Assembly (NCBI GenBank): GCA_030603395.1
Contig: JAUVXX010000001.1
Span: 29,822 to 93,821, forward strand
DNA: 64,000 nucleotides
Reading direction: 5' to 3'
DNA from: a bacterium
Lineage (GTDB): Bacteria > Patescibacteriota > Minisyncoccia > Minisyncoccales > CG1-02-41-26
The notes under the pieces are model-generated. The model had not been told where the DNA came from. It worked only from the letters and a program-made list of their open reading frames with translations, and made no database searches. A program made the translations under genes and the position numbers. The stretch's first letter is position 1. Each line of letters starts with the position of its first letter. Below are positions 1 to 20,409 of the stretch, in pieces.

Positions 1-334
1 TTATTCTCCCGAACCCTAAAACTTTTTTAGTGAAAGACGGATAATAAAATCTTCTGCCGTTAGTATCCAGCTCTATAATCACCGGGGGAAATTTCTTTCT
101 GATGAAAGAGAGTATTTTAAAAAAATCGGGGTGAATTGTCGGCTCCCCACCGGTTAAAATGATTTTGTCATCAATGAGATTGCCGTCTTTGTCAAAAATT
201 TTAGCAGCAATAATTCTTCTTTTAAGCTTGGTAAAACTGTAATCCTCAAAAGGGTCCCTATCCTGAAAATCAGAAGGATTAGTGCACATTATGCACTTGC
301 TGTTGCATTTATTCCAAAGACAAATAACCGGCAT
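1..334 (-). CDS. Radical SAM protein, N-terminal fragment; the gene continues past the window start
   Basis: Minus-strand ATG at 334. My translation reads MPVICLWNKCNSKCIMCTNP...ILTGGEPTIHPDF, giving a CxxxCxxC (CNSKCIMC) motif and a GGEP SAM-binding motif. There is no in-frame stop before position 1. It is absent from the ORF track because it is not stop-bounded. Confidence 0.55.
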   Translation of the reverse strand, partial: MPVICLWNKCNSKCIMCTNPSDFQDRDPFEDYSFTKLKRRIIAAKIFDKDGNLIDDKIILTGGEPTIHPDFFKILSFIRKKFPPVIIELDTNGRRFYYPSFTKKVLGFGRI

Positions 335-342
335 ATTTTATC

Positions 343-555
343 TTACTGTTCAATACCAAAAATAATCTCTCTTTCATCTTTGAGTTCTCCGATCGTTGCT
401 TCTCCTATGTTGTAGAATTTTGCTTTCTCTTTTAATTCTTGTTGAGCTCGAATTTTCGCCTCTTCTATACCAGAGCCCCTGACATAACCTAATACTTCAT
501 CGTGCTCCTGGCTCTGGTAAATAATAACATAGTTTTTGAGTTGTTTTTCGACCAT
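343..555 (-). CDS. Small hypothetical protein (70 aa) between two rSAM genes
   Basis: The ORF is compact and sits 17 nt upstream of the next rSAM gene on the same strand. It contains no recognisable motif. Confidence 0.35.
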   Translation of the reverse strand: MVEKQLKNYVIIYQSQEHDEVLGYVRGSGIEEAKIRAQQELKEKAKFYNIGEATIGELKDEREIIFGIEQ

Positions 556-571
556 ATTTTTTATTTATTAT

Positions 572-1492
572 TTATTTCATCGGCTTTAATTCTTTGTCTC
601 CATAGTTCTTAAGATAGTCCTTCCAAATTCCCTCGCATTTATCATAGAGTCGGCACCCTTGGCATCTTTTAGTTTTTGCTCGACCAACCACCTTGCGCGA
701 GCCCTCAACATCTCGGTTTTCAAAATCAGGGGCTAAATGTTCAGTGTGGAATATTTCCACTTCTTGTAATTCACTTACCTGGTCTAAATAATCAGTAAAG
801 TAGCAGAGGGGAACATAGCGGATAGCCCAGTGAGAAATTTTGTGCTTTTTGCCAATATCAAGACATTTGTGGATGTAAGAAGCTGCTTCTGAAATTTTTG
901 GAACAAATTTATAGAACCTATCATGGGCTGCCCCGTAAGAAGGGTCAACAAAAATAAATTCTGAATTTCTGATACCTAAATTATAAATAAGTTTTCCAAT
1001 CTGAGCAATGTATTTATAATTCTGTTTAACAATAGTGGTATTGGAGCCGATATTTTTCAACCCGACCTTTCTTACATTTTCTATTCCCTTTTTCAATTGG
1101 TTGAAACTGCCCTTTACTTGAGTCAAGAAATCATGGAGTTGGGCTGTATGGCCGTGAATAGAAAAGACTAGACTGTTTAAGCCAGCCTCCACTATTTTTT
1201 TAGCAAAGTTCCGATAAGAGTACATTCTGCCATTGGTTGACATCATTATTGTCTTGAAATCCTGTTCTTTGGCAAACTTTATCAAACCAACAATATCCGG
1301 TCTAATGCTCATCTCCCCTCCAACCAATTCTAAATAAGTTGTCCCTGAATTTCTGGCCTCAACCATTTCTTTTTTTATTTGTAAAGTTGTTTTTTCGGGG
1401 ATACTGTTTCTTTTATTAATATTAAGACAAAACTGGCAATTGTTATTACAGCGATAACCAGGGATAATAACGGTTTTTTTGATTTTGGGCAT
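572..1492 (-). CDS. Radical SAM enzyme, small CNNNC paralog family, with a C-terminal CxxCx5C Cys motif
   Basis: It has GYRCNNNCQFC (CxxxCxxC), a GGE SAM motif, the conserved core TNGRMYSYRNFAKKI, and a C-terminal CQGCRLYDKCEGIW. Confidence 0.8.
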   Translation of the reverse strand: MPKIKKTVIIPGYRCNNNCQFCLNINKRNSIPEKTTLQIKKEMVEARNSGTTYLELVGGEMSIRPDIVGLIKFAKEQDFKTIMMSTNGRMYSYRNFAKKIVEAGLNSLVFSIHGHTAQLHDFLTQVKGSFNQLKKGIENVRKVGLKNIGSNTTIVKQNYKYIAQIGKLIYNLGIRNSEFIFVDPSYGAAHDRFYKFVPKISEAASYIHKCLDIGKKHKISHWAIRYVPLCYFTDYLDQVSELQEVEIFHTEHLAPDFENRDVEGSRKVVGRAKTKRCQGCRLYDKCEGIWKDYLKNYGDKELKPMK

Positions 1493-1511
1493 AGCAATTA
1501 ACTTTTATTTA

Positions 1512-2372
1512 CTAAAGTTTAAATTCGTCTGTTCCATACAAATCTATATAACCCTTTAATACCCCGTCACATTTGGACTCGTAGGAACAATTTTGGCAAA
1601 GAGGGATTCTTATTTTGTCAGGATTTTTTTCAAGACAGGGAAAGAAATATTTTCGAGCATCTTTGAGAAGAGAGCAAGGTAAAAACTCCACCAATAAGAA
1701 CTTAGGAGAGAGGTTATCTTTATAATCTTTCAAGACATTAACTACATGTTGACCGAGCTCACTCATTCTCATTATAATCTTTTTATTGCGGGAGCGCCTG
1801 GAAAGAGGAGCGGCATTAAGAATATTTATTTCTTTTACCCCTAAACCACTGATTAGGTTTATCATCTTGGGAAGTTCAAGATAGTTTATTTTGTTTAAGA
1901 GCAGATTAACAATTAGGCTAAAACCTTTGTCTTTTAATTCTATAACATTTTTTATTCCTTTAACAGTTTGAAGAAAACTTCCCTTGGCTTGGGTCTGGCG
2001 ATCGTGCATTTGAGGAGTTGCCCCGTTAAGAGAGATAACTATTTGATTAACACCTATCCCCAATATTTTTTTAGCAAAATTTTTATAGCTAAGTAATCGC
2101 CCGTTGGTGGTGAAGCCGACCTGTTTAAAACCCAGTCCTTTGGCAAATCTCAACAGCTCAATAAAATCTTTTCTCAAAGTTGGCTCCCGACCCATAAAAT
2201 TAACAAAATCATAATGGGTTCTGACTTGAGAAATCTCTTTTTTAAGCTCTCCGGTGCTTTTTACCTTTAATCTCTCCATATATTCATCGGCTTCCGAACA
2301 AAAAATACAGTTGTTGTTGCAATTGTAGCCAATATAAATATAGGGACTAACTTTCATAATTTTAATAAACAT
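1512..2372 (-). CDS. Radical SAM enzyme, paralog of 572..1492
   Basis: It has GYNCNNNCIFC, the core TNGRLLSYKNFAKKI, and a C-terminal CQNCSYESKCDG. Confidence 0.8.
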   Translation of the reverse strand: MFIKIMKVSPYIYIGYNCNNNCIFCSEADEYMERLKVKSTGELKKEISQVRTHYDFVNFMGREPTLRKDFIELLRFAKGLGFKQVGFTTNGRLLSYKNFAKKILGIGVNQIVISLNGATPQMHDRQTQAKGSFLQTVKGIKNVIELKDKGFSLIVNLLLNKINYLELPKMINLISGLGVKEINILNAAPLSRRSRNKKIIMRMSELGQHVVNVLKDYKDNLSPKFLLVEFLPCSLLKDARKYFFPCLEKNPDKIRIPLCQNCSYESKCDGVLKGYIDLYGTDEFKL

Positions 2373-3319
2373 TTATGCTTTTGAGCCAAAGCGACAATCT
2401 CCTTTGGGCCGTATAAATTTAGGTAGTCTTGCCATACTCCCCCGCATTCTTTAAAAAACCGGCATCTCTGGCAAATCTCTATCCGTTCTTTATGAATATC
2501 TGAATAGATATTTCCTTTTTCTTTTTCAAATCTCCTCGGTTGGTATCCCACCTGCTCAGCTGTGGTCTTTCTGCCCTCAGCCGTAATGAGAGTGGTGCGG
2601 GAATCATCTCTTAGTTCCGGCTTAAAAAGACAGAGGGGAAAATCAAAAAAGGTAATCAGGTTAAACTTATCTAAAATAGCTTCAAGGTTATTCAAGGTAA
2701 AGGATAAATCATTTATTTTCACCACCAAAGTTTTATAAAAATCTTTGGCATAACCATCGGGAATAAGGTCTAAAATGTTGAAAAACTTAATTTTTAGAGA
2801 AGAGAGGAGCTTCCCTAGCTGGGTGAGCTTCTGGTAATTCAGTCGGGAAACCACCGTATTGACGATAACGTTGGTGTTGGGAAGTTTTTGAACGTTCTTG
2901 ATTCCCTGAATGGTTTGCTGGAAACTTTTTGGGGTGCGAGTAATGGCGTTGTGAAGTTCTGCTCTTGGACCATAAAGAGAAAAATTAATTCGTTTTACTC
3001 CGCTTTTAATAATTTTTTTAGCAAAATCATTATAACTTAGCATCCTCCCGTTGGTGCTTAAGCCAATATCTTGATAACCCAAATCTTCAGCACGCTTTAC
3101 CAACTCTAAAATATCTTCTCTGATGGTCGGCTCACCTCCGGTAAATTCTACTCTTTTGAAGCCCTGCTTTATTCCTCTCTCTAAATCTTTGATTACTTCT
3201 TTGGTGCTTCTGTCATCATATTTCTTGCCCTTTGGCTTGGTGGTACACATAATGCAGTTATTATTGCAAGAAAAACCAAGCATAGCTAAGAATATCCGTC
3301 TTGAATTATTATTCTTCAT
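2354..3319 (-). CDS. Radical SAM enzyme, paralog of 572..1492
   Basis: It has GFSCNNNCIMC, TGGEPT, TNGRMLSYNDFAKKI, and a C-terminal CQRCRFFKECGGVW. Confidence 0.8.
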   Translation of the reverse strand: MKNNNSRRIFLAMLGFSCNNNCIMCTTKPKGKKYDDRSTKEVIKDLERGIKQGFKRVEFTGGEPTIREDILELVKRAEDLGYQDIGLSTNGRMLSYNDFAKKIIKSGVKRINFSLYGPRAELHNAITRTPKSFQQTIQGIKNVQKLPNTNVIVNTVVSRLNYQKLTQLGKLLSSLKIKFFNILDLIPDGYAKDFYKTLVVKINDLSFTLNNLEAILDKFNLITFFDFPLCLFKPELRDDSRTTLITAEGRKTTAEQVGYQPRRFEKEKGNIYSDIHKERIEICQRCRFFKECGGVWQDYLNLYGPKEIVALAQKHKCLLKL

Positions 3320-3324
3320 AAAAA

Positions 3325-4227
3325 TTAACTTTTAACCGGCTTAAATTCCTGCCAGCCAAAAATTTGGGGGTACTCTTTCCAGGGACCCTCGCAAACCCTA
3401 TAATGTTTGCATTTCGGACAGTCAGGACCCTTGGCTTTACCTTCTGTTTTACGATATTTGCCATAATCTTCTATAGACCAAGTGGCATCATAAACTGCTC
3501 CTTCGGGAATAATTTTTTCAGCAATATAATCCTCGTAATCTTTCATAAAACAATAAGGGATGGCTTCCGTCATAACAGATACTCCTGCGTCAATGCCAAT
3601 TTGCAGTCCTTTTTTAACGTAAGGCATAACCCTGGACTTTTGGGGAACAATCTCATCTATTAGTTTCGGACTGGAAAGAATCATTTGATTGATATGCACA
3701 AAAGCAAATTGAAATTGGTTTACTCCCAAATTTACCAAAAGTTTGGCAATCTGGGGAAGGTATTTGTAATTAGGTTTGGTAATTACCGTATTCATCAGAA
3801 TACGTTGACCTAAAGATTTGAGATTTTTTATGCCGGTGGTAGTCTGCTCAAAGCTTCCCGGAACCGTAGTTAAGCTGTCGTGGAGGTAAGCTGTGTGTCC
3901 GTGCAAAGCCAAAGCAAACTCATTAGCCCCTTTTTTAATCAGGGCTTGGCAGAAATCTTTATAAGCAAACATCCGGCCGTTAGTCTGGATTTGAATAACT
4001 TTAAACCCTAAATCTTTTGCATATTGAACGAGTTCCGGCAAATCTTTCCTGATGGTCGGTTCGCCTCCGGTAAAAACAACCCCGTCGTATTTTTTACACG
4101 TCTTCCTTAAAATCTCTTTGATTTGTTTGGTTGTTTTGTCGGAATATTTCTCTCTTTTGTTTCCCTGAACGCAAAACCGACACCGGTTATTGCATTGAAA
4201 TCCCAATTTAATATCAACGCGTTTCAT
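3325..4227 (-). CDS. Radical SAM enzyme, paralog of 572..1492
   Basis: It has GFQCNNRCRFC, TGGEPT, TNGRMFAYKDF, and a C-terminal CPKCKHYRVCEGPW. Confidence 0.8.
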   Translation of the reverse strand: MKRVDIKLGFQCNNRCRFCVQGNKREKYSDKTTKQIKEILRKTCKKYDGVVFTGGEPTIRKDLPELVQYAKDLGFKVIQIQTNGRMFAYKDFCQALIKKGANEFALALHGHTAYLHDSLTTVPGSFEQTTTGIKNLKSLGQRILMNTVITKPNYKYLPQIAKLLVNLGVNQFQFAFVHINQMILSSPKLIDEIVPQKSRVMPYVKKGLQIGIDAGVSVMTEAIPYCFMKDYEDYIAEKIIPEGAVYDATWSIEDYGKYRKTEGKAKGPDCPKCKHYRVCEGPWKEYPQIFGWQEFKPVKS

Positions 4228-4254
4228 AGCTTTAATTATTTACTTTATTTTATT

Positions 4255-5352
4255 TTATTTAAATAGACGCCAGCACTGTGGATCTGGCAAAAACTGAGGC
4301 TCCTCCAGGTAGGTATCTTTCCAATAACTATAACTGACGCACTTTGCCCCTCCCCTACATTTATCAAAATAAGGGCAATCCTGACAGCGGATGTTTATGT
4401 TCTCGGGATTTCTTAGTTTTTTAAGCTCCCGGGAATTATAAAATATTTCTTCCAAGGACTGCTTTAGAACATTTCCCACGTAGATTGGCAGCCTTCGGCA
4501 GGGGTAAACATCCCCATTGGGCAGAATAGTCAAAGAAGAATATCCGGCCACGCAAGTGTTAGCCGGATAACTTTCCTGGGCTAAAATTCCGTCTTCGCAG
4601 CCTATTTCTAATCTTAATTTTGCTTTCTGCTCTTTTAATTTTTTCTGCGCTCTTAAAGTATAAAGGTACAGCTCTTTTGTTTCTCGGGGAGATAGCATTA
4701 ATTTTTTCATTTGTTTGCCCCTGCCCAAAGGAATAAATCTTCTTAAGCCCAAGCCATTTACTCCCAGATCTCTGGCTAATTGAATTATCTGGGGAACGTC
4801 CCCTAAATTCTGTCTGGTTATAGTCACGGAAATACTGGTGGGAATTTTGTTTTCAACCAGTAATTTTATCGCTTCTATTATTTTTCTAAAAGTTCCCCTG
4901 CCTCGAATTCCATCATTTTTCTCCTCTGTCCCCTCCAGGCTTACCTGGGCATAATCTATTTTTAGTTTTTTAAGTTTGGCTGTTTTTTCTTTATTGAGCA
5001 GAGTGCCGTTAATAAGAATTCCGTACCTGGTTTTCTTTCTATTTTGAAAACATTTCTCTAAAAATTTAAAGAAATCCGCTCTGACCATTGGCTCACCCCC
5101 GGTAATAGAGATTCTCGAGCTTTCACGGAGAAGCTTCCACTTCCTGACAAGCTTGACGTAGTCATTGAGAGTTTTGAAAAGCTGGCTCAAGGAAAGTTCA
5201 TTTTTAAGAAATTTCGGGTCAAAATAGCAGTGGCGGCAAGTCAAATTACACCTTTCGGTAATATGCCATTGGAGATGAAAAGAGGAAGGTTTGTATTCAG
5301 CAAACATTGTTTCTTCTCTTGAAATAATAACATCTCTCAATCTTTTTAACAA
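4255..5352 (-). CDS. Radical SAM enzyme with C-terminal SPASM domain
   Basis: It has CNLTCRHCYF and GGEP motifs. The C-terminus carries a Cys cluster CVAGY...CRRLP...CQDCPYFDKCRGGAKC, typical of SPASM auxiliary 4Fe-4S domains. Confidence 0.8.
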   Translation of the reverse strand: MLKRLRDVIISREETMFAEYKPSSFHLQWHITERCNLTCRHCYFDPKFLKNELSLSQLFKTLNDYVKLVRKWKLLRESSRISITGGEPMVRADFFKFLEKCFQNRKKTRYGILINGTLLNKEKTAKLKKLKIDYAQVSLEGTEEKNDGIRGRGTFRKIIEAIKLLVENKIPTSISVTITRQNLGDVPQIIQLARDLGVNGLGLRRFIPLGRGKQMKKLMLSPRETKELYLYTLRAQKKLKEQKAKLRLEIGCEDGILAQESYPANTCVAGYSSLTILPNGDVYPCRRLPIYVGNVLKQSLEEIFYNSRELKKLRNPENINIRCQDCPYFDKCRGGAKCVSYSYWKDTYLEEPQFLPDPQCWRLFK

Positions 5353-5436
5353 CTGTTATTGACAAATTTTTCTGAAGATGTATAATGAACTAAAAATAAA
5401 AAGCTCTTTAATAATTAGAGCGAAAGGAATAGCAAT

Positions 5437-6190
5437 GAAAAAGATTATAGGGATGATAGGAATTGTAGTAGTGATGATGCTTTTGGTGCTTTGTTTAGTG
5501 CCAAAAGCGGAAGCAAGAACAATAGGACTGTTGGTGGGTCCTAGTCTAAATCTTGAGGGACTAAATGATGTTCTTGGTGTCTTGAACAAAGAGCTAGGAG
5601 CGGATTTTAGCCTTAAAGAAGGACTAATGTATTCATTGGTCCTTAAGGGAGATTGGGTTACCCCGGTCTGGCGTAAAGGGATTGACTTCTCTGTTTGCCA
5701 GGCCAAGGCAGAAGACACTATCATGGGTTCCTGGGTTGGGAACCAAAGAGAGAAAATTGGGATTGAGATAGGAGTCTTGATTATGCCAATTTTTTTCACC
5801 AGAACATATGAGCCGAAAGGCAAGGGAAAAATATCGACTCGTCTGGGATTAGGGTTGGGAGGGGTTGTCACCCTCGTAAATATTTCCCAAGAAAAAACGA
5901 CTTTTTTTTGGGATCAGGATGGCAATCTTCAGGAGACAAAGCAAAGCTCAAGCAAAAGCCTGATTCTACCGTCTTTTGGTGTCCAGCTCTCAGCTGGACT
6001 TGAGTATAGGCTGGGAAAGAATGACGGGGAGTATGATTGGTCCAGAAAGAGAAAAAGTATTTTGCTGGAAGTAAGATATATTTCCAGCACGATAGAAATT
6101 CGAGACCCAGAGGCAAAACCCAATCCGATGGAAATTAGTGTCGAAATGAGTGAATTTTCTTTGAGGATGGGATTTATCACAGAGTTTTAA
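5437..6190 (+). CDS. Secreted beta-rich protein (signal peptide), function unknown
   Basis: The ORF track gives 5378..6190. An internal ATG at 5437 is preceded by a GAAAGGA ribosome-binding site and gives MKKIIGMIGIVVVMMLLVLCLVPKAEA, a signal peptide. The protein has an alternating hydrophobic pattern and ends in Phe. It is followed by terminator hairpins. Confidence 0.5.
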
Positions 6191-6197
6191 GAAAAAA

Positions 6198-6284
6198 ATT
6201 CTCCCCGACTTGGTTTAATCAAGCGGGGAGAATTTATATAGGTTTTAGTGATTTGTAACCCGTTAGATGAGAGTCCAACGGGTT
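6198..6284. terminator. Two stem-loops at the convergent junction between 5437..6190 (+) and 6298..6933 (-)
   Basis: The first inverted repeat is aattctccccg...cggggagaatt at 6198..6234, followed by TTTATATA. The second is aacccgtt...aacgggtt at 6257..6284, followed by TTTTAT. Confidence 0.5.
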
Positions 6285-6297
6285 TTATAATAGATTC

Positions 6298-6933
6298 TTA
6301 GTAAAAAAACTCATTCTCATTTAAATCTATTATCCCCGTTATAAATTCTATGGCAATTGTTTCTCCTATTAAATTCTTTAAAGGTTTGAAACATTTTCTC
6401 TCCTGGGTCCTGTCAACCCACTCTTGAGTGACTTCCTGTTCTTTTATGACCAGAGTAATTAAGTAATAATCGCCAGACAAGGGTTGCCAAACAAACATGT
6501 CAGAAGAATTTAGGGGAACCCGACAATCTTTTTCTGGAGATCTTACTGCCTCATCTATTATTTCAGCAATTTCAATATTGCAACTTCTTATTTGACCCAT
6601 AGAAACCTTTTCTTCCGGATAAAACTTGTCTAAATTAGCGGTCTGGTAAGCGGGACCGAACTCGCAAGAGATTTCACAGTCAGGCCACTTCTTAACAATA
6701 TGAACTAAGTTAATCAGGGAGTTTTCGTTTAATACCGAAGGTCCGAATGCTTCTCTAAGAGGTCCTGTATGATTAAAGATTATCTTATTAATTCTTTCGT
6801 TGCTGGTAATTCGTGGTATAATTTCAACTGAAGGTTCTCTCCGGGCAGAATAATAAATAAGCAATAGAGCAACTATGTCCACCACAAAGAAGATGCCCGC
6901 TATGAGTATTAAAATTTTAAGTTTTTTGCTCAT
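6298..6933 (-). CDS. Hypothetical protein with N-terminal membrane anchor
   Basis: It has an N-terminal TM segment (LKILILIAGIFFVVDIVALLLIYY) and no recognisable catalytic motif. Confidence 0.4.
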   Translation of the reverse strand: MSKKLKILILIAGIFFVVDIVALLLIYYSARREPSVEIIPRITSNERINKIIFNHTGPLREAFGPSVLNENSLINLVHIVKKWPDCEISCEFGPAYQTANLDKFYPEEKVSMGQIRSCNIEIAEIIDEAVRSPEKDCRVPLNSSDMFVWQPLSGDYYLITLVIKEQEVTQEWVDRTQERKCFKPLKNLIGETIAIEFITGIIDLNENEFFY

Positions 6934-12326: not shown

Positions 12327-12791
12327 TTACTCGGTAACCATCTTGGTGATTTTAGTAGCGGTAAATTCCTCAAGTTCGTTTATCTTCTCAAAAGTTGATT
12401 CAACTGTTGCTACAACAATGCTGTCATCTATTTCTATTTCCGAAAATTCCGAGGCAGATTCTTCTTGAGTGGTTATGTTGTAAATTCGCCACTCGGTCTC
12501 TTCGGTAAACTTTATGGTTTTTTCCATCAGGTCTTTCTCGGCTGTCTCAATCAGAGAGGTCCTGGCCTCTATCCTTAAAGTTTTACCTTCAATATCAACC
12601 GCTTTAACTCCTCCTTCAATAAGATTGTTGGGATATTGCTGCTGAGAAGGAGTTTCTTCTTCCGAAGTTTCCGGGGTTTCTTGTTCTTCTTCCTGGACGG
12701 GAGGGGCCTCTTGGCCCAACAAAAACACCCCCATTAAGACAACAACAGCAACAACGAAGAAGATAAGAACAATTTTTGTTTTTTTATCCAT
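12327..12791 (-). CDS. Small membrane-anchored protein, paralog of 20035..20409
   Basis: It has an N-terminal TM segment, an acidic linker, and then a domain that shares YPNNLIEG and TFEKINELEEFTATKITK with 20035..20409, which reads YPHNLIEG and STYEKVNELDQFTAIKISK. Confidence 0.5.
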   Translation of the reverse strand: MDKKTKIVLIFFVVAVVVLMGVFLLGQEAPPVQEEEQETPETSEEETPSQQQYPNNLIEGGVKAVDIEGKTLRIEARTSLIETAEKDLMEKTIKFTEETEWRIYNITTQEESASEFSEIEIDDSIVVATVESTFEKINELEEFTATKITKMVTE

Positions 12792-13795: not shown

Positions 13796-14759
13796 AAATA
13801 TAAGATTTGGTTTTTTTTATATATTCCTGGAAGAGGCTTCGGCTTTTAGCGTTTTCCTTTAAAATTTGGGCTATTTTTTGGGAGGTATTATTGCGCAACT
13901 TGATTATATTTTTATCAAAATGAATGTCAGGGTAAAAATCAAAACACGACGAAGCTCTTTTGCCCGAAACGCTTATTTCAACATTTTTCCTTAAATCCTC
14001 TTTTTTGTTCAGAATTCGGCTTACGGAATTCAAAAAGATAAATCTTTTGTTTTTTATTTCTCTTACAATATAGTCAGAGATTTTGTTTAAGCAAGAAAGG
14101 AAATCTTTTCTTTCTTTTTCTTCCCAGGTTACTGTCTGAATTGGCTCAATGTTTATGCTCTTAAATCCCGTTTTTATTAAATAAATAAAATTTTCATGCA
14201 TTTTTTTAACCTCTGAAGGATGAACGGCCATCAGGGCACAAACATTTTCTTCCTTCAGGTTTTTAAAGACCGCTGGCAACTTTTTTATTATCTGAGAAAA
14301 TGAACTTCTGCCATTTTTAAATACCCGGAATCTATCGTGAGTTTCTTTTTTCCCGTCAATACTTACGGCTAATTTGACATTATATTTCTGAAAAAACTTG
14401 AGGTGTTCTTTTCTAATTAAAGTGCCGTTAGTGGCTACAGATACAGCTAATTGCTTATTTTTTTGCCTGACTAAAGATTGAGCAAAAATGATTATCTTTT
14501 TTAGTAAATCAAAATAAAGCAAGGGTTCTCCGCCATATAAAAGAAGCTGTTTTTCTTTTCCCGGAGATAAAATAAGATTTCTTACTGCTTGCTTGGCTTT
14601 TTCAAAGGGTATAATCTCATTGGTTTTTTTAATAAAACAATACCGACACCTCATATTGCAGCGAGTGCCAACAAAAAGCCACGTCTTTTTAATTTCCCTA
14701 TCTAGGCTCATCTTTTTAAAAACGGATGTAGAGAATAAGATTGTCATTTTCTGCATCAA
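13788..14759 (-). CDS. Radical SAM enzyme without a SPASM-type Cys cluster
   Basis: It has CNMRCRYCF, YGGEP, and ATNGTLIRKEH...SIDGKKETHDRFRVFKN, which is paralogous to the core of 16980..17987. Confidence 0.75.
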   Translation of the reverse strand: MMQKMTILFSTSVFKKMSLDREIKKTWLFVGTRCNMRCRYCFIKKTNEIIPFEKAKQAVRNLILSPGKEKQLLLYGGEPLLYFDLLKKIIIFAQSLVRQKNKQLAVSVATNGTLIRKEHLKFFQKYNVKLAVSIDGKKETHDRFRVFKNGRSSFSQIIKKLPAVFKNLKEENVCALMAVHPSEVKKMHENFIYLIKTGFKSINIEPIQTVTWEEKERKDFLSCLNKISDYIVREIKNKRFIFLNSVSRILNKKEDLRKNVEISVSGKRASSCFDFYPDIHFDKNIIKLRNNTSQKIAQILKENAKSRSLFQEYIKKTKSYIFE

Positions 14760-15576
14760 TTACGTGAATTTTTCCCTTGGCGCTTTTGATGAGAGTTAAG
14801 ATTTCCCTTAAACAGTTAGTATTGCCGCTTAAACTCAGAAGTTTCTCTAGCGTTTCTTTTTTTAATCCATTTTTCAACTGAACTCCGAATTTTCTGGAAA
14901 TAAGCTTGTTCCCCTGATATCTTTCGCCAAAATGATAATGAGAACTGATTGGTTTTAAAAAAGTGAAGATTTTTCGCTCAAGAGAAGAGGGCCCTCCTTT
15001 ATCTTGACATTTTTCCTCTAAAAAATGGGTAAGGTAATAAATTTTATATTTCGGTTTTGGCTCCTGGTCAATATCAAAACCCATTATGACAATCTTTTCC
15101 TTTTTGAGAGGAATGTTTATTTTAAATTGTTCAAGGATGCTTTTTACCGCAGAACGCACTGTCTTAGAGTCATTGATATCGCCGAAATGTAGATAAACTT
15201 TAAATCTTATTTTTTTCTTTTTTGTCTCCAAGCCAAAATAAAGCGAGGGTTTGATTTTATTTAATTTTCTGAGCTTGTGAAATAATAATTTTGAAACATT
15301 AGATTTGCCGTAAGAATTAATGATACCCTCTATCAATTCTATTCTCTCAGTATACAAATTTTCAAAGTTCTTGGAATAAGTATCGTAGTTGACCAATCTT
15401 AAGGTATCCTCAATCTTTCCTTTTTTTAATTTAAGAGAAAATCCGAATTCAGTTTTGTTTGCTAAATCGCCTTTCACTAATTTCTTAATGACAGGGCTTA
15501 TAATCTCCCGGGTGGACGCATCGGGGAGTAACTTTTTTGCTAAATAAGAAAACGTTTCAGATATGTTTTTTTCCAT
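14716..15576 (-). CDS. Hypothetical protein of about 286 aa, paralog of 12875..13795
   Basis: See 12875..13795. It lies 4 nt downstream of the HemN-like rSAM gene. Confidence 0.5.
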   Translation of the reverse strand: MEKNISETFSYLAKKLLPDASTREIISPVIKKLVKGDLANKTEFGFSLKLKKGKIEDTLRLVNYDTYSKNFENLYTERIELIEGIINSYGKSNVSKLLFHKLRKLNKIKPSLYFGLETKKKKIRFKVYLHFGDINDSKTVRSAVKSILEQFKINIPLKKEKIVIMGFDIDQEPKPKYKIYYLTHFLEEKCQDKGGPSSLERKIFTFLKPISSHYHFGERYQGNKLISRKFGVQLKNGLKKETLEKLLSLSGNTNCLREILTLIKSAKGKIHVIDAENDNLILYIRF

Positions 15577-15580
15577 AAGT

Positions 15581-16975
15581 TCACAAAGGAATATATTTTA
15601 ATTCTTCATCCCCAATAATCTTTTTTTTATTTTTTACCGGTTTTATTTTCTTTTGGCATTTTTTAACTATTTCCTCAGAATAAAAATATTTAGAAAAAAC
15701 CAAATAAGCGCCGAAATTAGGAACTTTAGATTGAAGATGAGTCGGTCTTGCGATTATTTTTCCTCTTTTTACCAAATATTCAATTTCTTCTTTCAAAACT
15801 TTGTCTATGTCTTGACCAAAAAGCTGGTAAATCCTTTTTTTGGGAAGAAGATTGTACCTGAGAGAATTTATAACGTACCATTTTATCTCTTCAATTTTAT
15901 TTTTATATCTGCATTGAAGATAAACCGGGCTTTCATTCTGCCGAATGCCTCTTTCGTATTTTTCTAAATCGGGAAAGTTCATATAATTTCCCCAACCGGA
16001 AATATGCGACATAGCCGCCATTCCCAATCCCAAGAAAGGACTGTTATATTCAACCGTGTCAGCTATCTGAATATTTCGGGCTTCATTGCTTTTACCTATG
16101 TCTTCAAACTGTAAAAACTTATAGGAAGAGTCAAGAAGCATTTTGCGGCCCAAAGCGTTCATTTCCTCTCTCTTTTGCATTTCTTCCCGCGACAGGACTT
16201 TTCCCTGCTGGGAGAAGGAAGTAGCCGGATTGGGAAAGAAGGGATTAACGTGAACCACATCCGGTGAAAGCTTAATTACTTTCTTCATTGTCTCTTTAAA
16301 GCTTTTGAGCGTTTGGCCGGGCAAGCCGCACATTATATCAAAGTTTATGTATTTAATGCCGGCTCGCCGCGCCCGCTGATAAGCTTTGTAAACCGATTTC
16401 TCAGACGATAAACGTCCCCACTTTTTCATTAATTTATCATCAAAGCTCTGTACTCCCATATTAAGCCGGCTGACTTTATATCTCTTTAATAATTTCAATT
16501 TTTTCCAAGAAAGAGTACTGGGATTTGCTTCAAAAACCACCTGAATGCATTTCTTAAAATCAAAATGGTTATAGATAAGTTCAAAAAATTTTTCAAGCTG
16601 AGTCGGGCTTAAAAGAGAGGGGGTGCCCCCGCCAACATAAAGTGAACGAAAAGAGACGGATTTAAAAATCTTTGAATACAATTTCACTTCCCTGGCAAGC
16701 AGGTTTAAGTAATTGTCTATTTGGCTGTGATTTTTAAGCTTTTGAGCCGGGAACCGGCAAAAAATACACCTTGAAGCACAGAAAGGAAGGTGAACGTACA
16801 TTCCCACCTTATCTACGCCTCTATTTATTGTTCTTTTCCAGGCAGTTTTTATCTCTTCCTGGTTGGCTTTATGCCAAACAAAAATTGGGGGGTAATAAAA
16901 GGGGAAACCAACAAAGTCAGTCTGGGATATTTTTTCAGTGATTGCTCGGAAGAGCCAATCTTTATCTTTAATCAT
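15581..16975 (-). CDS. HemN/HemW-family radical SAM enzyme (coproporphyrinogen-III-oxidase-like; possible class C rSAM methyltransferase)
   Basis: It has YVHLPFCASRCIFCRF (the YxHxPFCxxxCxFCxF signature), GGGTPS, and MGVQSF motifs, which are typical of the HemN family. Confidence 0.8.
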   Translation of the reverse strand: MIKDKDWLFRAITEKISQTDFVGFPFYYPPIFVWHKANQEEIKTAWKRTINRGVDKVGMYVHLPFCASRCIFCRFPAQKLKNHSQIDNYLNLLAREVKLYSKIFKSVSFRSLYVGGGTPSLLSPTQLEKFFELIYNHFDFKKCIQVVFEANPSTLSWKKLKLLKRYKVSRLNMGVQSFDDKLMKKWGRLSSEKSVYKAYQRARRAGIKYINFDIMCGLPGQTLKSFKETMKKVIKLSPDVVHVNPFFPNPATSFSQQGKVLSREEMQKREEMNALGRKMLLDSSYKFLQFEDIGKSNEARNIQIADTVEYNSPFLGLGMAAMSHISGWGNYMNFPDLEKYERGIRQNESPVYLQCRYKNKIEEIKWYVINSLRYNLLPKKRIYQLFGQDIDKVLKEEIEYLVKRGKIIARPTHLQSKVPNFGAYLVFSKYFYSEEIVKKCQKKIKPVKNKKKIIGDEELKYIPL

Positions 16976-16979: not shown

Positions 16980-17987
16980 TTAATCTGCCCTGGTTATCTT
17001 TAAAAAATTAGATATGTAAATTTTTGAGATTTCACAGAAGGTCTGGAAATGTTTTTTAAAATCTTTTTTGTTCTCTTGAGACCAAAGATATAAACCAATT
17101 GGACAGAAGCAGTATTCCTGACAAGGACATTTTGAGCATTTGCTGTCTGTTATTTTAAGAATCCCCTTTTTTGCCTTTCTTAACAAGTTTTCTCTTTTTG
17201 CTTTATCAATTCCTCCTCCTCTGCCAACTATGTATTTTTTTCTCCTTTTATCAAAAAAAGAAAATACTTTATCGCAAAGATAAAAATTTCCATCAGGACC
17301 TAAATTCAGCTGCTGGCAGCAGAAATTCTCGCTGTTTTTCTCAAGGCCTTTTGTTATGCTAAACTCGCTAAAAGTTTTTTTAAGGATATTGAGCTGATTT
17401 TTTGACCATAAACCGTAAACCTCTGGATAAAAATCTATTAAGCGAAATCCGTTTTCAACAAAGAACTTAATGTTTTCAGTAAGGTGGTTTACTGTTGAGG
17501 GAGTAAAGATCAGAGAGATTTTAATTTTTTCTTTATTTAAATTTTTGATATTTTTCCAGACCGTTTTGAAGACCGAACGTTCTTTATCATTTTTAAATAC
17601 TCTGTTGACGTCATTTACATCTTGCTTACCGTCTAAACTTATTGAGAGGCCGACGTTGTTCTCGGCTAAAAATTCACTTCTTTCTTTGTTGAGCAAGGTG
17701 CCGTTGCTGGAGAGCACAATAAAAGCCCTCTTTTTTTCGTTCCTTTTCAAATATTCTATCAATTCTTTTAATTCCCCCCAATAAAGCAAGGGTTCTCCGC
17801 CGGTAAAATTAATGGTCGGCTCTTTTATTGAGTGTTTCAAAAAAAAGCTGATTCCCCTTTTTAATTCGGGAACATTGGGGATAATCTTTTTCAAATTCTC
17901 TTTGTCAATAAAACAATAGCTGCAATCAAGATTGCAGCCACCTCCAAGAAAAATAGATAAAGAATGGTATTTTATTTGCTGAGCCAT
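16980..17987 (-). CDS. Radical SAM enzyme with a C-terminal Cys-rich (SPASM-like) region
   Basis: It has GGGCNLDCSYCF, TGGEP, and a C-terminal CSKCPCQEYCFCP. Confidence 0.75.
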   Translation of the reverse strand: MAQQIKYHSLSIFLGGGCNLDCSYCFIDKENLKKIIPNVPELKRGISFFLKHSIKEPTINFTGGEPLLYWGELKELIEYLKRNEKKRAFIVLSSNGTLLNKERSEFLAENNVGLSISLDGKQDVNDVNRVFKNDKERSVFKTVWKNIKNLNKEKIKISLIFTPSTVNHLTENIKFFVENGFRLIDFYPEVYGLWSKNQLNILKKTFSEFSITKGLEKNSENFCCQQLNLGPDGNFYLCDKVFSFFDKRRKKYIVGRGGGIDKAKRENLLRKAKKGILKITDSKCSKCPCQEYCFCPIGLYLWSQENKKDFKKHFQTFCEISKIYISNFLKITRAD

Positions 17988-19393
17988 TTTTTAAATATTT
18001 TTAATGCTTCAGGAGTTTCAAATTTTCGGAATAAATAATCTAAGATGCTTTTGTTTACCTGACAGCGAAAGTTATTGGGAGCTTGAGCAAAGATGTTGCC
18101 TTCTTCAGAATAGTTAAACACCGGACAAACTCCGCAATAAGGCAGGTAAACACAATCACTGCATCCGGTAAGCCCTTCCAACGTAGAGGCAAGGCAAAGA
18201 GATTTAGTAACCTCAGAAGAAATAATTTCTTTATAGGTATTTTTATGAACGTTGCCCAGTTTAAAAGTTCCATCTCCCATCTGTCCCAGCATTCTCCCCT
18301 CATCACAAGTATAAACATCTCCGTTGTAGTGGTAAGCTAGCTGACCAATACCAGCCCCACAGGGTGAACGAAGGTCCAAAAAATTAGGGTCATTATCAGT
18401 GAATGCTTTCTGAGCGATCATTTTAGCTATTCTCTCTCTGATGTCTATTCCCCGAAGATTCAATTCTATTATATAATCTAATGCCTTTTTATAAAAAGTA
18501 ACAAAGTCCTGGGCGCTGTAGCCAAGCAGTTTTTGAAGCCCCTTTGCCATACCGAAAGGGTTAAGCGGTCTTAAGTGAATATCCCTCAAGCCCAGCTTTA
18601 CGTACTCATCAACGATTTCTTTCCATAAGGGAAGCGAATCTCCCGTAGTGGTAATAAGAGCGTTTACTTGATAATGCAGGTCTTTGTATTTTTTCTTTGT
18701 TTTTTTAATTCCCTGACAAGTAGCGCGATAACTGCTTTTTCCATCAAGTTTCGGCCTGTTTTTGTTGTGAAGTTTCTCCGGCCCATCCAGAGAGCTGCAA
18801 ATAGAAATCTTTTTGCCGTGAAGCCAATTCAATTTTTTATCATCTAAAAGACTTAGGGTGGAAACAAGACTGAACCTTAACTCTTTCTTTGCTTTTTTAT
18901 TTTTCTCAAGCACCCGATTGACAATGAATTTAACTATGCCAAAGTTGGCCAATGGTTCCCCTCCCTGAAATTCAACGTTAATAAAGGGGGAGGTGGTTTC
19001 AAAAATCATATCCACTACTTTCTTAGCTGTTGGCTCTTGCATGTCCAAATCAGTTCTGGTCATATTTTTAGACGAAGCATGGCAGTATCTGCAGGCATGG
19101 TCGCAGCGAAGAGTAACCACAATAATATGAAGACCGGGTCCCTGACTTAGATATTTGCCGCGATAGCTGGCGTATCTGTTAGTTAATCTTGCTTGACAGT
19201 TTTCACAGCGCCACGATTTAGAAGTAAAGTGCTTTTTGTCTAATTCTTTGTAAACAGAGGCCTCTTCTTTAAGTTTCCCTTCTTTAAAATTTTTAAAGTC
19301 CTTTTTTTGGAGAAAAATAAAATCGCCAAGATCATTGGTCAGGAGATATTTTTGTCCTAATTTTTTAAAACGGAAAAAACCTGTCTTAATCAT
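17972..19393 (-). CDS. Radical SAM/SPASM enzyme with an N-terminal extension of about 100 aa, paralog of 6977..8458
   Basis: It has CDHACRYCHASS and QGGEP motifs, and a C-terminal CGAGIGQLAYHYNGDVYTCDEG...CSDCVYLPYCGVCP. Confidence 0.8.
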   Translation of the reverse strand: MIKTGFFRFKKLGQKYLLTNDLGDFIFLQKKDFKNFKEGKLKEEASVYKELDKKHFTSKSWRCENCQARLTNRYASYRGKYLSQGPGLHIIVVTLRCDHACRYCHASSKNMTRTDLDMQEPTAKKVVDMIFETTSPFINVEFQGGEPLANFGIVKFIVNRVLEKNKKAKKELRFSLVSTLSLLDDKKLNWLHGKKISICSSLDGPEKLHNKNRPKLDGKSSYRATCQGIKKTKKKYKDLHYQVNALITTTGDSLPLWKEIVDEYVKLGLRDIHLRPLNPFGMAKGLQKLLGYSAQDFVTFYKKALDYIIELNLRGIDIRERIAKMIAQKAFTDNDPNFLDLRSPCGAGIGQLAYHYNGDVYTCDEGRMLGQMGDGTFKLGNVHKNTYKEIISSEVTKSLCLASTLEGLTGCSDCVYLPYCGVCPVFNYSEEGNIFAQAPNNFRCQVNKSILDYLFRKFETPEALKIFKKWLSK

Positions 19394-19590
19394 TGTTTCA
19401 TCATAGCTAAAACATAATTACAAAATTCATCTTCAATTTTTCTCTTGGCGGTCGGTACTATATTCTCTAACTTTACGGTGATTACTTTTTTATTCTGACT
19501 TATTTTAAAATCTGCCAGCCCTTGATAGGCCTGGCTGGCTTTTTCGACAGTTTTAAGGTTATAGAAATTTTTGTTAAACCTTATCGTCAT
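19390..19590 (-). CDS. Small protein (66 aa) translationally coupled to the downstream rSAM/SPASM gene
   Basis: It overlaps the downstream gene by 4 nt (ATGA). It could be an accessory or chaperone-like (HxsD-like?) component, but this assignment is speculative. Confidence 0.35.
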   Translation of the reverse strand: MTIRFNKNFYNLKTVEKASQAYQGLADFKISQNKKVITVKLENIVPTAKRKIEDEFCNYVLAMMKQ

Positions 19591-19596
19591 AACCTT

Positions 19597-20028
19597 TTAT
19601 TTCTTTTCCCCATACTTTTCCTCCCAGGGCACGGCAATGCCCAGAGGATCACTCTCAATATGTTCTTCTTCTGATGTTTCTTCCGAGGGAAAAGCCGAGA
19701 ACAATGCTTTTTCCACAATGGTTTCTCTTATCTTCTTGGTGTTTTTAGCGATGGCCGTTCTTAAAACATAATCTAAAAGTTCATTTTTAAACTCTCCGGC
19801 GAGCTCTTCCAATTTTTTAGAGTCAAGCTTTCGCTTTCCTTCTATAAAAACTTTAATTTCTTTCTTGGGGTCGCCATCTAAAAACAAATATGCTCGGTCA
19901 ACAAAAACATAACAAGCTCCATAGATGGCTTCCAATGGATAAATTTTGGGGTTAAGTGAAATCACCAGCTGGCCATTTTGTTTTTGAGTTTTTATGGTCT
20001 TGATATTCCTTCTATTTTTTGAAGACAT
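19597..20028 (-). CDS. Hypothetical protein (143 aa)
   Basis: It is a compact ORF inside the operon with no recognisable motif. Confidence 0.4.
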   Translation of the reverse strand: MSSKNRRNIKTIKTQKQNGQLVISLNPKIYPLEAIYGACYVFVDRAYLFLDGDPKKEIKVFIEGKRKLDSKKLEELAGEFKNELLDYVLRTAIAKNTKKIRETIVEKALFSAFPSEETSEEEHIESDPLGIAVPWEEKYGEKK

Positions 20029-20034
20029 AAGCGT

Positions 20035-20409
20035 TTATTCTCCTGGAAGATTCATAAACTTGCTTATCTTGATAGCGGTAAACTGGTCAAGTTCATTTAC
20101 TTTTTCGTAGGTTGATTCTTCGGTACCGATTACCACCGGGTCTCCTTTTTTAAGTTGCGAAAACTTCAGGGGAGATTCTTTTTTAGTAGTCATATCATAG
20201 AGAACAATCTCTGTCTTTGAAGTAAGCTTAATGGTTTTTTTCAGAGAAGAAGCTTTGGCCGTACTAATTTTTGAGGTATCAGCATCCAAGATGAAACTGG
20301 TTGGACCTGAATAGTCAATTTCTGATATTTGTCCCTCTATAAGATTATGGGGATACTCTTCAGTAGAAGAGGAATTCTTTGATTGTGGCCGCTTTTTTTC
20401 TTTTGCCAT
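20035..20409 (-). CDS. Small protein, paralog of 12327..12791; first gene of the cluster after clpP
   Basis: It shares motifs with 12327..12791. It begins 18 nt after the clpP stop on the same strand. Confidence 0.5.
   Translation of the reverse strand: MAKEKKRPQSKNSSSTEEYPHNLIEGQISEIDYSGPTSFILDADTSKISTAKASSLKKTIKLTSKTEIVLYDMTTKKESPLKFSQLKKGDPVVIGTEESTYEKVNELDQFTAIKISKFMNLPGE

Follow-up and report, generated by a model that had tools for sequence, protein, structure and literature searches.

The closest described relatives of the gene cluster considered here are the Hxs systems, whose canonical families (TIGR03976-03979) go back to Haft and Basu (2011). The cluster occupies positions 1-20409 of a 64,000-nucleotide (nt) stretch of contig JAUVXX010000001.1 from a Patescibacteria bacterium; this whole stretch is called the window, and all coordinates below are window positions unless a related locus is named. 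The canonical HxsDBCA set is an antiphage system that blocks the entry of phage DNA (Li et al., Nat Commun 2026, PMC13128918). HxsB, HxsC and HxsD mature the signal-peptide-bearing HxsA, which is active in the envelope, and HxsC binds HxsD (PMC13128918). In the E. coli system, HxsA is processed at the N-terminus and acquires an rSAM-dependent (radical S-adenosylmethionine enzyme-dependent) +8 Da modification on one motif, SHRSS; protection depends on the histidine of this motif, which modelling placed in the active site of HxsC (PMC13128918). Mature canonical HxsA acts in the periplasm via a peptidoglycan-binding domain and basic repeats, and the E. coli system has resisted reconstitution in vitro (PMC13128918). 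Among the canonical systems, 99.7% belong to Pseudomonadota, 99.8% have four genes and 99.6% are arranged as hxsD-hxsB-hxsC-hxsA (PMC13128918). An earlier reading of the present DNA (the original prediction) stated that the Hxs system has no known product chemistry; this is out of date, as antiphage activity and the +8 Da HxsA modification have been reported (PMC13128918).

The cluster described here belongs to the Hxs family by its HxsB, HxsD and HxsA proteins. It is, quite probably, a greatly enlarged chromosomal Hxs maturation system of a bacterium of the Candidate Phyla Radiation (CPR, Patescibacteria).

Assignment to the Hxs system

According to the listing of open reading frames (ORFs) and their translation, positions 1-20409 are almost entirely coding and contain 12 ORFs with a CxxxCxxC and a GGE-type motif, 11 on the minus strand and one (6977-8458) on the plus strand. 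This agrees with the 12 radical S-adenosylmethionine (rSAM) genes originally predicted for these ~20 kb. The Pfam Radical_SAM domain was scanned in nine of the 12 ORFs and confirmed in all nine; 1512-2372, 2354-3319 and <1-337 are assigned as rSAM by their motifs, the first two also by matches to NCBIfam HxsC4 and HxsC-type rSAM models.

Family assignment used the curated NCBIfam cut-offs (in bits: HxsB TIGR03978, 370; HxsD TIGR03976, 50; HxsD-like NF038315, 41; HxsA4 NF038313, 55; HxsA3 NF038309, 65; HxsC TIGR03977, 267.9; HxsC4 NF038332, 500). The protein encoded at 17972-19393 scores 531.8 bits against HxsB over the full model length, carries a SPASM domain above the Pfam threshold (25.1 bits) and is 40% identical to the annotated Aeromonas HxsB of a canonical hxsDBCA operon. 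HxsD, encoded at 19597-20028, reaches 71.9 bits and contains ELLDYVLRT, the counterpart of the LLNDYxLRE motif, while the adjacent small protein (19390-19590) gives 72.5 bits with the HxsD-like model. The two proteins with tandem H-x-S triplets, a long HxsA-L of 555 amino acids (aa) and a short HxsA-S of 144 aa, score 79.0 and 60.3 bits, respectively, with HxsA4; with HxsA3 they reach 71.7 bits and, under the cut-off, 63.4 bits. No other HxsA-type model matched either precursor, only HxsA3 and HxsA4 being returned at E≤0.01. With HxsB, HxsD, HxsD-like and HxsA3/A4 matched above curated cut-offs, the view that the H-x-S proteins and the rSAM/SPASM enzymes form an Hxs system is upheld; the profile searches on which the original prediction had let its case depend found Hxs families, so that a complete lack of matches did not arise.

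Other rSAM enzymes of the cluster stand further from the described families. The HxsB paralog encoded at 6977-8458 scores 302.1 bits against HxsB, under the 370 cut-off, is 31% identical to the HxsB encoded at 17972-19393 and has a SPASM domain of 30.9 bits. The enzyme encoded at 4255-5352 (SPASM 48.3 bits) is nearest to the NCBIfam families ACGX and SbtM, at ~164 bits and below cut-off. These two and HxsB are the three ORFs above the Pfam PF13186 threshold; the other two of the five SPASM-type enzymes first counted, at 16980-17987 and 8433-9395, have a CxxCx5-6Cx2-3C motif only and no SPASM model match. The latter (Radical_SAM 53.3 bits) contains CNRNCRYC and CKDCx6Cx3C. The former overlaps the HxsB stop codon; it scores 128.2 bits with the PapB family, below cut-off, and HxsC is not among its top matches. 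The enzyme encoded at 13788-14759 gives 157.6 bits with PapB and 120.7 bits with HxsB, both below cut-off.

The tandem family of small rSAM paralogs, foreseen as five or six genes, is present as four complete copies and one truncated copy, mutually 27-37% identical and each with a terminal CxxCx5C. The HxsC4 and HxsC scores are 136.9 and 74.7 bits for 572-1492, 130 and 90.8 bits for 1512-2372, 149.2 and 122.5 bits (the highest HxsC score) for 2354-3319, and 178.8 (the highest HxsC4 score) and 110.5 bits for 3325-4227. Canonical Aeromonas HxsC matches only these small paralogs, at ~25% identity, and its best match in the window is 2354-3319 (25%). The low mutual identity of the paralogs points to old duplications, and the copies have probably diverged in function. 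Judging from these matches, divergent relatives of HxsC or different rSAM enzymes would take on its role. Of the hxsD-hxsB-hxsC-hxsA arrangement, only the D-B start and the downstream A are kept. The enzymes have no signal peptides, as in canonical HXS.

Gene content and transcription units

The genes of the cluster and the adjoining context are as follows.

1..337, minus strand: HxsC-like small rSAM paralog, N-terminal part, the gene running past the window start; CNSKCIMC and TGGEPT; 27-31% identity to the four downstream paralogs
343..555, minus strand: 70-aa ORF within the HxsC-like array; no repeats, no Cys
572..1492, minus strand: HxsC-like small rSAM paralog, 306 aa; CNNNCQFC and C-terminal CQGCx5C
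1512..2372, minus strand: HxsC-like small rSAM paralog, 286 aa; HxsC4/HxsC scores below cut-off
2354..3319, minus strand: HxsC-like small rSAM paralog, 321 aa; HxsC4/HxsC scores below cut-off
3325..4227, minus strand: HxsC-like small rSAM paralog, 300 aa; HxsC4/HxsC scores below cut-off
4255..5352, minus strand: rSAM/SPASM enzyme of 365 aa, opening the lower minus-strand operon; Pfam Radical_SAM and SPASM
5435..6190, plus strand: 251-aa protein with an N-terminal signal-peptide-like segment (sequence reading)
6298..6933, minus strand: 211-aa membrane-anchored protein, conserved beside the Hxs core in relatives
6977..8458, plus strand: HxsB paralog, rSAM/SPASM, 493 aa, convergent with the main operon; HxsB model below cut-off
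8433..9395, minus strand: rSAM of 320 aa, C-terminal Cys cluster; its gene directly follows that of the long precursor; Pfam and motifs
9426..11093, minus strand: long precursor HxsA-L, 555 aa, with leader, 50 HxS triplets and ~345-aa domain; HxsA4/HxsA3 models
11090..11896, minus strand: 268-aa membrane-anchored Cys-repeat protein, 16 Cys; Cys spacing
11887..12321, minus strand: short precursor HxsA-S, 144 aa, with leader, 27 HxS triplets and C-terminal GSWC; HxsA4 model
12327..12791, minus strand: 154-aa membrane-anchored member of the 124/154-aa family; 42% identity to 20035-20409
12875..13795, minus strand: predicted ABBA prenyltransferase-fold protein, '306 type'; family profile E=2e-76
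13788..14759, minus strand: 323-aa rSAM, PapB/HxsB-like core, no SPASM tail; NCBIfam, below cut-offs
14716..15576, minus strand: predicted ABBA prenyltransferase-fold protein, '286 type'; predicted fold
15581..16975, minus strand: HemN-family rSAM, 464 aa; NCBIfam and PDB matches
16980..17987, minus strand: 335-aa rSAM in the canonical HxsC position; PapB-like, below cut-off
17972..19393, minus strand: HxsB, signature rSAM/SPASM maturase; TIGR03978
19390..19590, minus strand: HxsD-like small protein, 66 aa; NF038315
19597..20028, minus strand: HxsD, 143 aa; TIGR03976
20035..20409, minus strand: soluble 124-aa protein of the 124/154-aa family, its gene the first to follow clpP; pairwise and family alignment
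20428..22294, minus strand: clpP (20428-21048) and tig (21020-22294), context outside the system; ClpP NF001368 307.7 bits, trigger factor TIGR00115 310.4 bits

The array begins directly after tig-clpP, as had been noted, its first gene (20035-20409) being separated by 18 nt from the stop codon of clpP; neither a ClpX-like Walker A motif nor a ClpX Pfam match was found in the window. The gene order is 124aa-D-D'-B-rSAM335-HemN-PT-rSAM323-PT-154aa-A-CysRpt-A (D' being the HxsD-like gene, PT the prenyltransferase-fold genes and CysRpt the Cys-repeat gene), followed by units on both strands. The array was first thought to lie on one strand throughout. The single same-strand run extends only from 20409 to 8433, with the genes at 6977-8458 and 5435-6190 on the plus strand, and the cluster comprises at least five transcription units. 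The HxsB paralog gene (6977-8458, plus strand) is convergent with the 320-aa rSAM gene and divergent from the 211-aa gene (6298-6933, minus strand). A lower minus-strand operon runs from 5352 past position 1 and contains the SPASM enzyme, the four complete and one truncated small rSAM paralogs and the 70-aa ORF.

A consensus sigma-70 promoter (TTGACA-16-TATAAT, a 12/12 match) lies at 5359-5386 on the plus strand, upstream of the 251-aa gene (5435-6190), and two hairpins are located 3' of this gene at 6200-6290. An extended -10 promoter-like element, TGcTATAAT, recognised by consensus match only, is found at 12845-12874 on the minus strand, in the 83-nt gap before the 154-aa gene; it could drive the precursor genes separately from the enzymes. 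The promoter and terminator scan was not enriched over shuffled sequences (54 vs 45 and 17 vs 17), and operon boundaries therefore rest on the strand changes, these two elements and the hairpins.

Precursor proteins

The cluster encodes, as predicted, two paralogous H-x-S repeat proteins with a conserved leader and a hydrophobic segment. By direct reading, the leaders of HxsA-L and HxsA-S are near-identical over the first ~55 residues. They start with a ~27-residue conserved polar segment (FPxIKKxIKxFLTSEEGNVNKKDIV), continue with a hydrophobic segment (residues 26-47) and an AQA sequence (AxA site) and end in D/Q-W-x-C; the hydrophobic segment and the AxA site look like a Sec signal peptide. 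HxsA-L has 50 H-x-S triplets, 44 of them in the longest uninterrupted run, and HxsA-S has 27, of which no more than 12 follow one another without interruption; the first estimates of ~60 and ~30 were too high. The repeat unit is H-[S/G/T]-S, the repeat regions have no Lys or Arg, that of HxsA-L is ~30% His, and conserved Cys residues flank the repeats. HxsA-S terminates in GSWC. The C-terminal domain of HxsA-L measures ~345 aa, rather than the ~320 aa first given, and consists of two carbohydrate-binding-module-like β-sandwiches.

The fusion of HxsA to a C-terminal domain was found in five of the nine homologues read (22 matches in all), and homologues of 418-534 aa share the leader, the repeats and the CGCPF-x-VWNGK junction of HxsA-L. 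An explanation of the 555-aa ORF by frameshift or faulty assembly was rejected, the same fusion and junction being present in five independent homologues. The public NCBI annotation of the source contig (P0007) holds only the C-terminal 341 aa of 9426-11093 and misses the leader and the 50 repeats.

Ser/His-rich low-complexity proteins are common, and the 555-aa ORF has weak chance matches to collagen-like adhesins, so that the H-x-S proteins might be taken for ordinary low-complexity surface proteins lying among rSAM genes by coincidence. This explanation is effectively refuted by co-conservation: conservation of the leader motif and its linkage to HxsB/HxsD extend over phyla of both bacteria and archaea, and the precursors score above the curated HxsA3/A4 cut-offs. 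Moreover, the DNA under the repeats is imperfect (66-87% matches), which argues that the array is kept by selection at the protein level and is no slippage artefact.

Related loci and modular growth

At least 13 independent loci, from CPR, Myxococcota, Planctomycetales, Elusimicrobia, Aenigmarchaeota and Methanosarcinales, encode precursors with this leader next to HxsB/HxsD. The neighbourhood comparison that the original prediction had called for thus spans several phyla, and the two gene sets were not seen to part. Related loci are cited below by their L numbers.

The cluster looks like a core to which an accessory module and an HxsC-like array have been added, and it is the largest example of the graded series seen here. 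The core would comprise HxsD, the HxsD-like protein, HxsB, the 154-aa protein, HxsA-L, the 320-aa rSAM, the HxsB paralog and the 211-aa protein. It occurs alone in L027/L028, which contain only tig-clpP-HxsD-D'-HxsB-154aa-HxsA(fusion)-rSAM320-(HxsB paralog, convergent)-211aa, and in L029 (HxsD-D'-HxsB-HxsA(fusion)-211aa-HxsC-like). In L027/L028, the HxsB paralog has a homologue of 75% identity in the same convergent position, and the 320-aa rSAM one of 76% identity after the HxsA gene; the 211-aa protein has homologues in the same relative position in L027/L028 (68%) and L029 (48%).

The accessory module would consist of the 335-aa rSAM, the HemN-like enzyme, the two prenyltransferase-like proteins, the 323-aa rSAM, HxsA-S and the Cys-repeat protein. 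This block (rSAM335, HemN, 286-aa, rSAM323, 306-aa, short HxsA, Cys-repeat) is found in L001 and L002-L006 in the order of the window. The 335-aa rSAM is conserved after HxsB in L002-L007, and the 323-aa rSAM lies between two prenyltransferase-like genes in the window, L002 and L032. Parts of the block follow HxsB in L007 (Omnitrophota) and L016 (Planctomycetales, eight rSAM genes), and accessory-type genes accompany HxsB also in L033-L035.

The third putative addition, the HxsC-like array, has counterparts with HxsB in loci of Methanosarcinales, Woesearchaeota, SAR324 and Halothermothrix. In L029 and L006, the core is followed by HxsC-like genes, and in L032 three of them come directly after the 286/rSAM323/306 block; this co-occurrence ties the lower half of the cluster to Hxs. 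Individual paralogs have homologues in L006 (62% identity to 572-1492) and, for 3325-4227, in L029 (70%), L032 (55%) and L024 (50%), each of the last three in an Hxs-type cluster.

These comparisons bear on the improbable alternative that two or three unrelated rSAM systems adjoin each other, an Hxs operon at 20409-8433 and a separate cluster at 1-8458 acting on another, unseen substrate. The strand switches and the number of transcription units would suit such a division, as would the close relative L001, where other genes (a 445-aa rSAM, a CPBP protease and methyltransferases) follow the precursors; in addition, the HxsC-like array leaves the window, so that a second precursor could sit beyond position 1. 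However, the HxsB paralog, the 320-aa rSAM and the 211-aa protein recur in the minimal L027/L028 cluster at 68-76% identity and in the same arrangement, HxsC-like genes come after the core (L029, L006) and directly after the prenyltransferase module (L032), and the best family matches of these enzymes are Hxs models. The gaps within 1-9400 are too small for a precursor gene, the sole small ORF (70 aa) having neither repeats nor Cys.

The tig-clpP junction is also found in L002-L004, L006, L027 and L028, and the L005 contig starts inside clpP. It is not found in L029, which adjoins type IV pilus genes, and the linkage is therefore specific to the lineage of the window. Comparable expanded clusters occur in L016, L032 and L034. 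A YcaO protein is encoded in the expanded Hxs-type cluster of L034 (13934-15226), and MiaB-like UPF0004-rSAM enzymes in those of L016 (19349-20554) and L033 (8819-9931); the accessory enzyme set consequently varies widely between lineages.

Prenyltransferase-fold protein family

The 286- and 306-aa proteins of the accessory module share 24% pairwise identity (E=0.057), and their joint profile recovers both. No NCBIfam or Pfam model, those of prenyltransferases such as the LynF/TruF/PatF family included, gave a significant match to either; in the wider family, Pfam Trp_DMAT (PF11991) matched two of 46 members, with a best E of 5e-4. A word-indexed, shallow search of 5.8 billion clusters returned four matches to the 306-aa protein and two to the 286-aa protein, and 64 representatives emerged when 1.84 billion proteins were searched exhaustively with a profile of the pair and its close homologues.

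The predicted fold is a barrel of five ααββ units, and the family is assigned with moderate confidence to the ABBA prenyltransferase fold, at ~10% identity to known prenyltransferase structures. The residues invariant in the family are E45, R60, R78, K178, Y180, K229, E276 and Y283, with conserved Tyr, Lys, Arg and Glu on the barrel strands. By kind, these residues resemble those that line ABBA active sites.

The six further family members with readable context all lie in rSAM-rich clusters. Four of these clusters contain HxsD, and three (L033, L034, L035) also have, at the place of HxsB, an rSAM of ~480-500 aa; the L031 sequence is not long enough to reveal such a gene. The family member of L032 has a polyprenyl synthase gene as its neighbour. 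The prenyltransferase slot of L006 seemed empty at first; this was rejected, as a divergent member is present there (hhalign probability 96.7%). In all six systems that have both the family and a visible precursor (window, L001, L005, L006, L016, L034/35), a precursor ends in G-[GS]-W-C, while in systems lacking the family the precursor ends otherwise. This small-sample correlation suggests that the C-terminal Trp or Cys of the precursor may be the target. Together with the fused precursor, this rare, apparently Hxs-specific and previously unrecognised family of predicted prenyltransferase fold is the newest element of the cluster.

HemN-like enzyme and other accessory proteins

The HemN-like rSAM foreseen for the cluster is confirmed by NCBIfam and PDB matches. 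The enzyme encoded at 15581-16975 (Pfam Radical_SAM 91.9 bits) matches HemN (1olt, 1.3e-31) and the class C methyltransferase NocN (7.4e-26) in PDB, and lies below all NCBIfam equivalog cut-offs (score/cut-off: STM4012 187.8/380; HemW 182.4/205.4; HemN 163/325; ChuW 153.9/400). It is probably a class C methyltransferase, to judge by its cluster context and by the gene that takes its place in L005. In L005, the HemN slot between the 335-type rSAM and a prenyltransferase-like gene is taken by a B12-binding rSAM with class B methyltransferase architecture (3968-5320); the presence of two rSAM methyltransferase classes in one slot supports a putative C-methylation step. Near this B12-binding rSAM, L005 encodes a Dph6-like (diphthine-ammonia-ligase-like) ATP pyrophosphatase (7155-7868). 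Dph6 normally acts on a modified histidine, which is worth noting in a His-repeat cluster.

Besides the prenyltransferase-fold pair, a second duplicated family is formed by the 124- and 154-aa proteins (42% identity, E=5e-31). Both families and the Cys-repeat protein had been announced, and they are borne out by pairwise and profile matches and by 16 spaced Cys. By alignment, membrane-anchored and soluble subtypes of the 124/154-aa family are conserved in L001, L005, L006 and L027, and a member of the family always comes before the precursor gene; the family profile found one marginal match in PDB (E=0.059). The 16 Cys of the protein encoded at 11090-11896 lie 9-24 residues apart behind a transmembrane segment. 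Homologues of it are encoded between the two precursor genes in L001 (82% identity) and, in L005 (41%), at the end of the contig, following the precursor gene(s). No usable Pfam or NCBIfam match was obtained for the Cys-repeat protein, the 124/154-aa family or the 211-, 251- and 70-aa proteins.

Proposed maturation pathway and role of the product

By analogy with the canonical system and by family membership, HxsB would bind the leader in the cytoplasm, jointly with HxsD and the HxsD-like protein, and the HxS triplets would be modified by radical chemistry. Further steps may be carried out by the two PapB-like rSAM enzymes, the HxsB paralog, the 320-aa rSAM, the SPASM enzyme and at least five HxsC-like paralogs. 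The HemN-type class C methyltransferase would C-methylate, and the two ABBA-fold proteins would prenylate, possibly at the C-terminal G-S-W-C. The products would then be exported by a Sec-type route, with HxsA-L held at the envelope by its two carbohydrate-binding-module-like β-sandwiches. The result might be an envelope-bound modified poly-His/Ser layer, the role of which is the least certain part of this scheme.

HxsA-S could instead be the precursor of a classical ribosomally synthesised and post-translationally modified peptide (RiPP), secreted after removal of the leader as a diffusible peptide with antimicrobial or signalling activity; the cluster would then be a natural-product gene cluster and not an envelope system. 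Its leader/core layout with a conserved C-terminal G[SG]WC fits this, and so do the RiPP-type maturases (PapB-like and SPASM enzymes, a cyanobactin-like prenyltransferase fold and a class C methyltransferase) and the YcaO protein of L034. The explanation is nevertheless unlikely. No dedicated leader peptidase or ABC exporter is encoded within the cluster, and the leader has a Sec-like hydrophobic region with AxA and no double-glycine motif. Furthermore, HxsA-S is partnered by a 555-aa precursor that has folded domains, and this long form is the only one in the minimal systems.

Protection against the entry of phage or foreign DNA, as in canonical HXS, is tentatively the likeliest role, suggested by homology. 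Metal binding by the His-rich product is about equally plausible. In its full form, the doubtful proposal of a metal-binding product envisages an envelope or extracellular chelator or store of Ni, Zn or Cu, in which rSAM cross-links only rigidify or protect the protein and which has no role in phage defence. The repeats of HxsA-L, about 30% His, free of basic residues and flanked by conserved Cys, are suited to this; the chromosomal place by housekeeping genes is stable in several genomes, PADLOC gave no defence-specific matches, and CPR cells rely on scavenging. On the other side, no linked metal transporter, chaperone or metalloregulator is present in the window or the related loci, and simple chelation of the His-tag kind needs no heavy enzymatic modification. 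The sole tested Hxs system is antiphage, and its SHRSS His, needed for protection, was modelled in the HxsC active site and not as a free ligand.

A number of observations weigh against the reading of the cluster as one enlarged, prenylating Hxs system with a protective role. As to the assignment, the predicted HxsA-HxsB-HxsC composition held for HxsA and HxsB by models, but no ORF reaches the HxsC (best 122.5 vs 267.9) or HxsC4 (best 178.8 vs 500) cut-off, and the small HxsC-like paralogs lack the N-terminal ~100 residues of canonical HxsC. Given the split into five or more transcription units, some genes may have no part in acting on HxS proteins, and the tail of L001 differs, its precursors being followed by the 445-aa rSAM, an Rce1-like CPBP protease and two SAM methyltransferases (L001 5051-7263). 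CPBP/Rce1 enzymes in eukaryotes process prenylated C-termini. As to prenylation, the fold model has a predicted local distance difference test (pLDDT) value of 65 from a four-sequence alignment, that is, moderate confidence, and the best PDB matches of the 46-sequence profile, LimF/LynF-type enzymes, are marginal (E=0.028); PatF, moreover, demonstrates that a prenyltransferase fold can be catalytically inactive. As to the role, the absence of Lys and Arg sets the repeats apart from the basic repeats (HRSHRSHSSHRS) behind the proposed DNA binding of canonical HxsA, and the canonical DNA-binding mechanism is therefore not simply transferable. PADLOC (2023, with no Hxs model) returned only generic viperin-type rSAM matches. 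The cluster lies beside the housekeeping genes tig-clpP in eight related loci (tig visible in seven), and no mobile-element or defence-island neighbours of the locus were seen.

A broader conjecture is that an Hxs-derived pathway builds a new envelope material in uncultured lineages such as CPR and Planctomycetes. Long poly(His-X-Ser) proteins might be radical-cross-linked and C-methylated, and also prenylated by the Hxs-specific ABBA family, possibly with a lipid anchor at G-x-W-C, with each HxsC-like paralog adding a distinct modification; it is a speculative picture, more apt to fail than to hold.

Other genes of the window

Beyond tig, the window has a housekeeping context (22426-24414, 26633-28759, 29539-35818) with a membrane-bound Na+/H+ pyrophosphatase (858 bits), PNPase, four tRNA genes and a CCA-adding enzyme/poly(A) polymerase. 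A MacB/FtsX-HlyD-ABC export set is encoded at 32028-35648. Between tRNA genes, a 196-aa ORF (29613-30203, minus strand) matches PF18895, a family of type IV secretion system pilins (E=3.6e-8).

Genes of probable surface or cell-wall proteins follow one another at 35881-42662 on the minus strand. They encode a Big_13 Ig-like protein (35881-37566), a cohesin/Y_Y_Y-like protein (37616-38902) and a WxL-interacting peptidoglycan-binding domain (41083-42039); several further ORFs of the run matched no family. A single ORF of 3944 aa spans 43946-55780 (minus strand); Pfam recognises in it one bacterial Ig/cadherin-like domain only, at residues ~404-502. It is probably a giant surface protein, and such proteins are common in CPR genomes.

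Significance and comparison with known systems

The chemistry of Hxs systems on His-X-Ser is still unsolved, and substrates with 27-50 repeats would offer a much larger mass signal. The graded relatives, from HxsB alone to HxsB with the accessory module and then with the HxsC-like array, form a ladder for assigning the step of each enzyme, and a new, rare family of predicted prenyltransferase fold becomes tied to rSAM peptide maturation. Hxs, thought to be 99.7% proteobacterial, is extended to CPR bacteria, DPANN archaea and other uncultured phyla. The question is raised whether tiny episymbionts spend 20 kb of a roughly 1 Mb genome on a phage barrier or on metal capture.

A literature search found no publication on an HxsA3/A4-type, expanded or CPR Hxs system, or on a RiPP combining prenyltransferase, HemN and rSAM enzymes. 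The claim that the architecture is undescribed stands to this extent; it does not hold for NCBIfam, which has HxsA3/A4, HxsC4 and HxsD-like models, nor for uniqueness, given the comparable clusters L016, L032 and L034. Both precursors and the 66-aa protein score above the NCBIfam cut-offs, so the leader type and the HxsD-like protein have already been recognised by curators. The HxsC4 model gives 130-179 bits, against a cut-off of 500, with the window paralogs, and the NCBIfam models do not cover the accessory module.

In polytheonamide/proteusin, ranthipeptide PapB and SCIFF systems, several rSAM enzymes, including methyltransferase classes, load one leader-bearing ribosomal precursor. The likeness to these multi-rSAM RiPP systems extends to the 335- and 323-aa enzymes, the nearest non-Hxs family of which is PapB. 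In contrast, the presumed substrates in the window are predicted exported repeat proteins with a Sec-like leader, one of them a 555-aa protein with folded domains; there is no nitrile-hydratase or Nif11 leader, and no equivalog cut-off of those families is reached.

The prenyltransferase-fold proteins are similar in size (~300 aa) to the cyanobactin F-family/ABBA enzymes (PagF, PatF, LimF, DciF) and to DMATS enzymes. However, members of the 286/306-aa family are found only in Hxs-type rSAM clusters and not in PatA/PatG clusters.

Canonical HXS is the closest system. As in it, HxsB and HxsD are equivalogs above cut-off, the gene order starts with D-B, and the precursor combines a putative export signal, tandem H-x-S and a C-terminal folded domain that plausibly binds an envelope glycan. 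The precursors of the window differ in having 27 and 50 repeats instead of 5 (a tenfold number in HxsA-L), Ser or Gly instead of Arg as X, and a leader with a ~27-residue conserved N-terminal extension of the HxsA3/A4 type. No HxsC equivalog is encoded, and an HxsD-like gene comes in addition. Instead of two rSAM genes, 12 are present, together with the HemN-type enzyme, two proteins of predicted ABBA fold, the Cys-repeat protein and other exported proteins. Finally, while canonical systems are nearly all four-gene sets of Pseudomonadota, the present one is a chromosomal cluster beside tig-clpP in a CPR bacterium.

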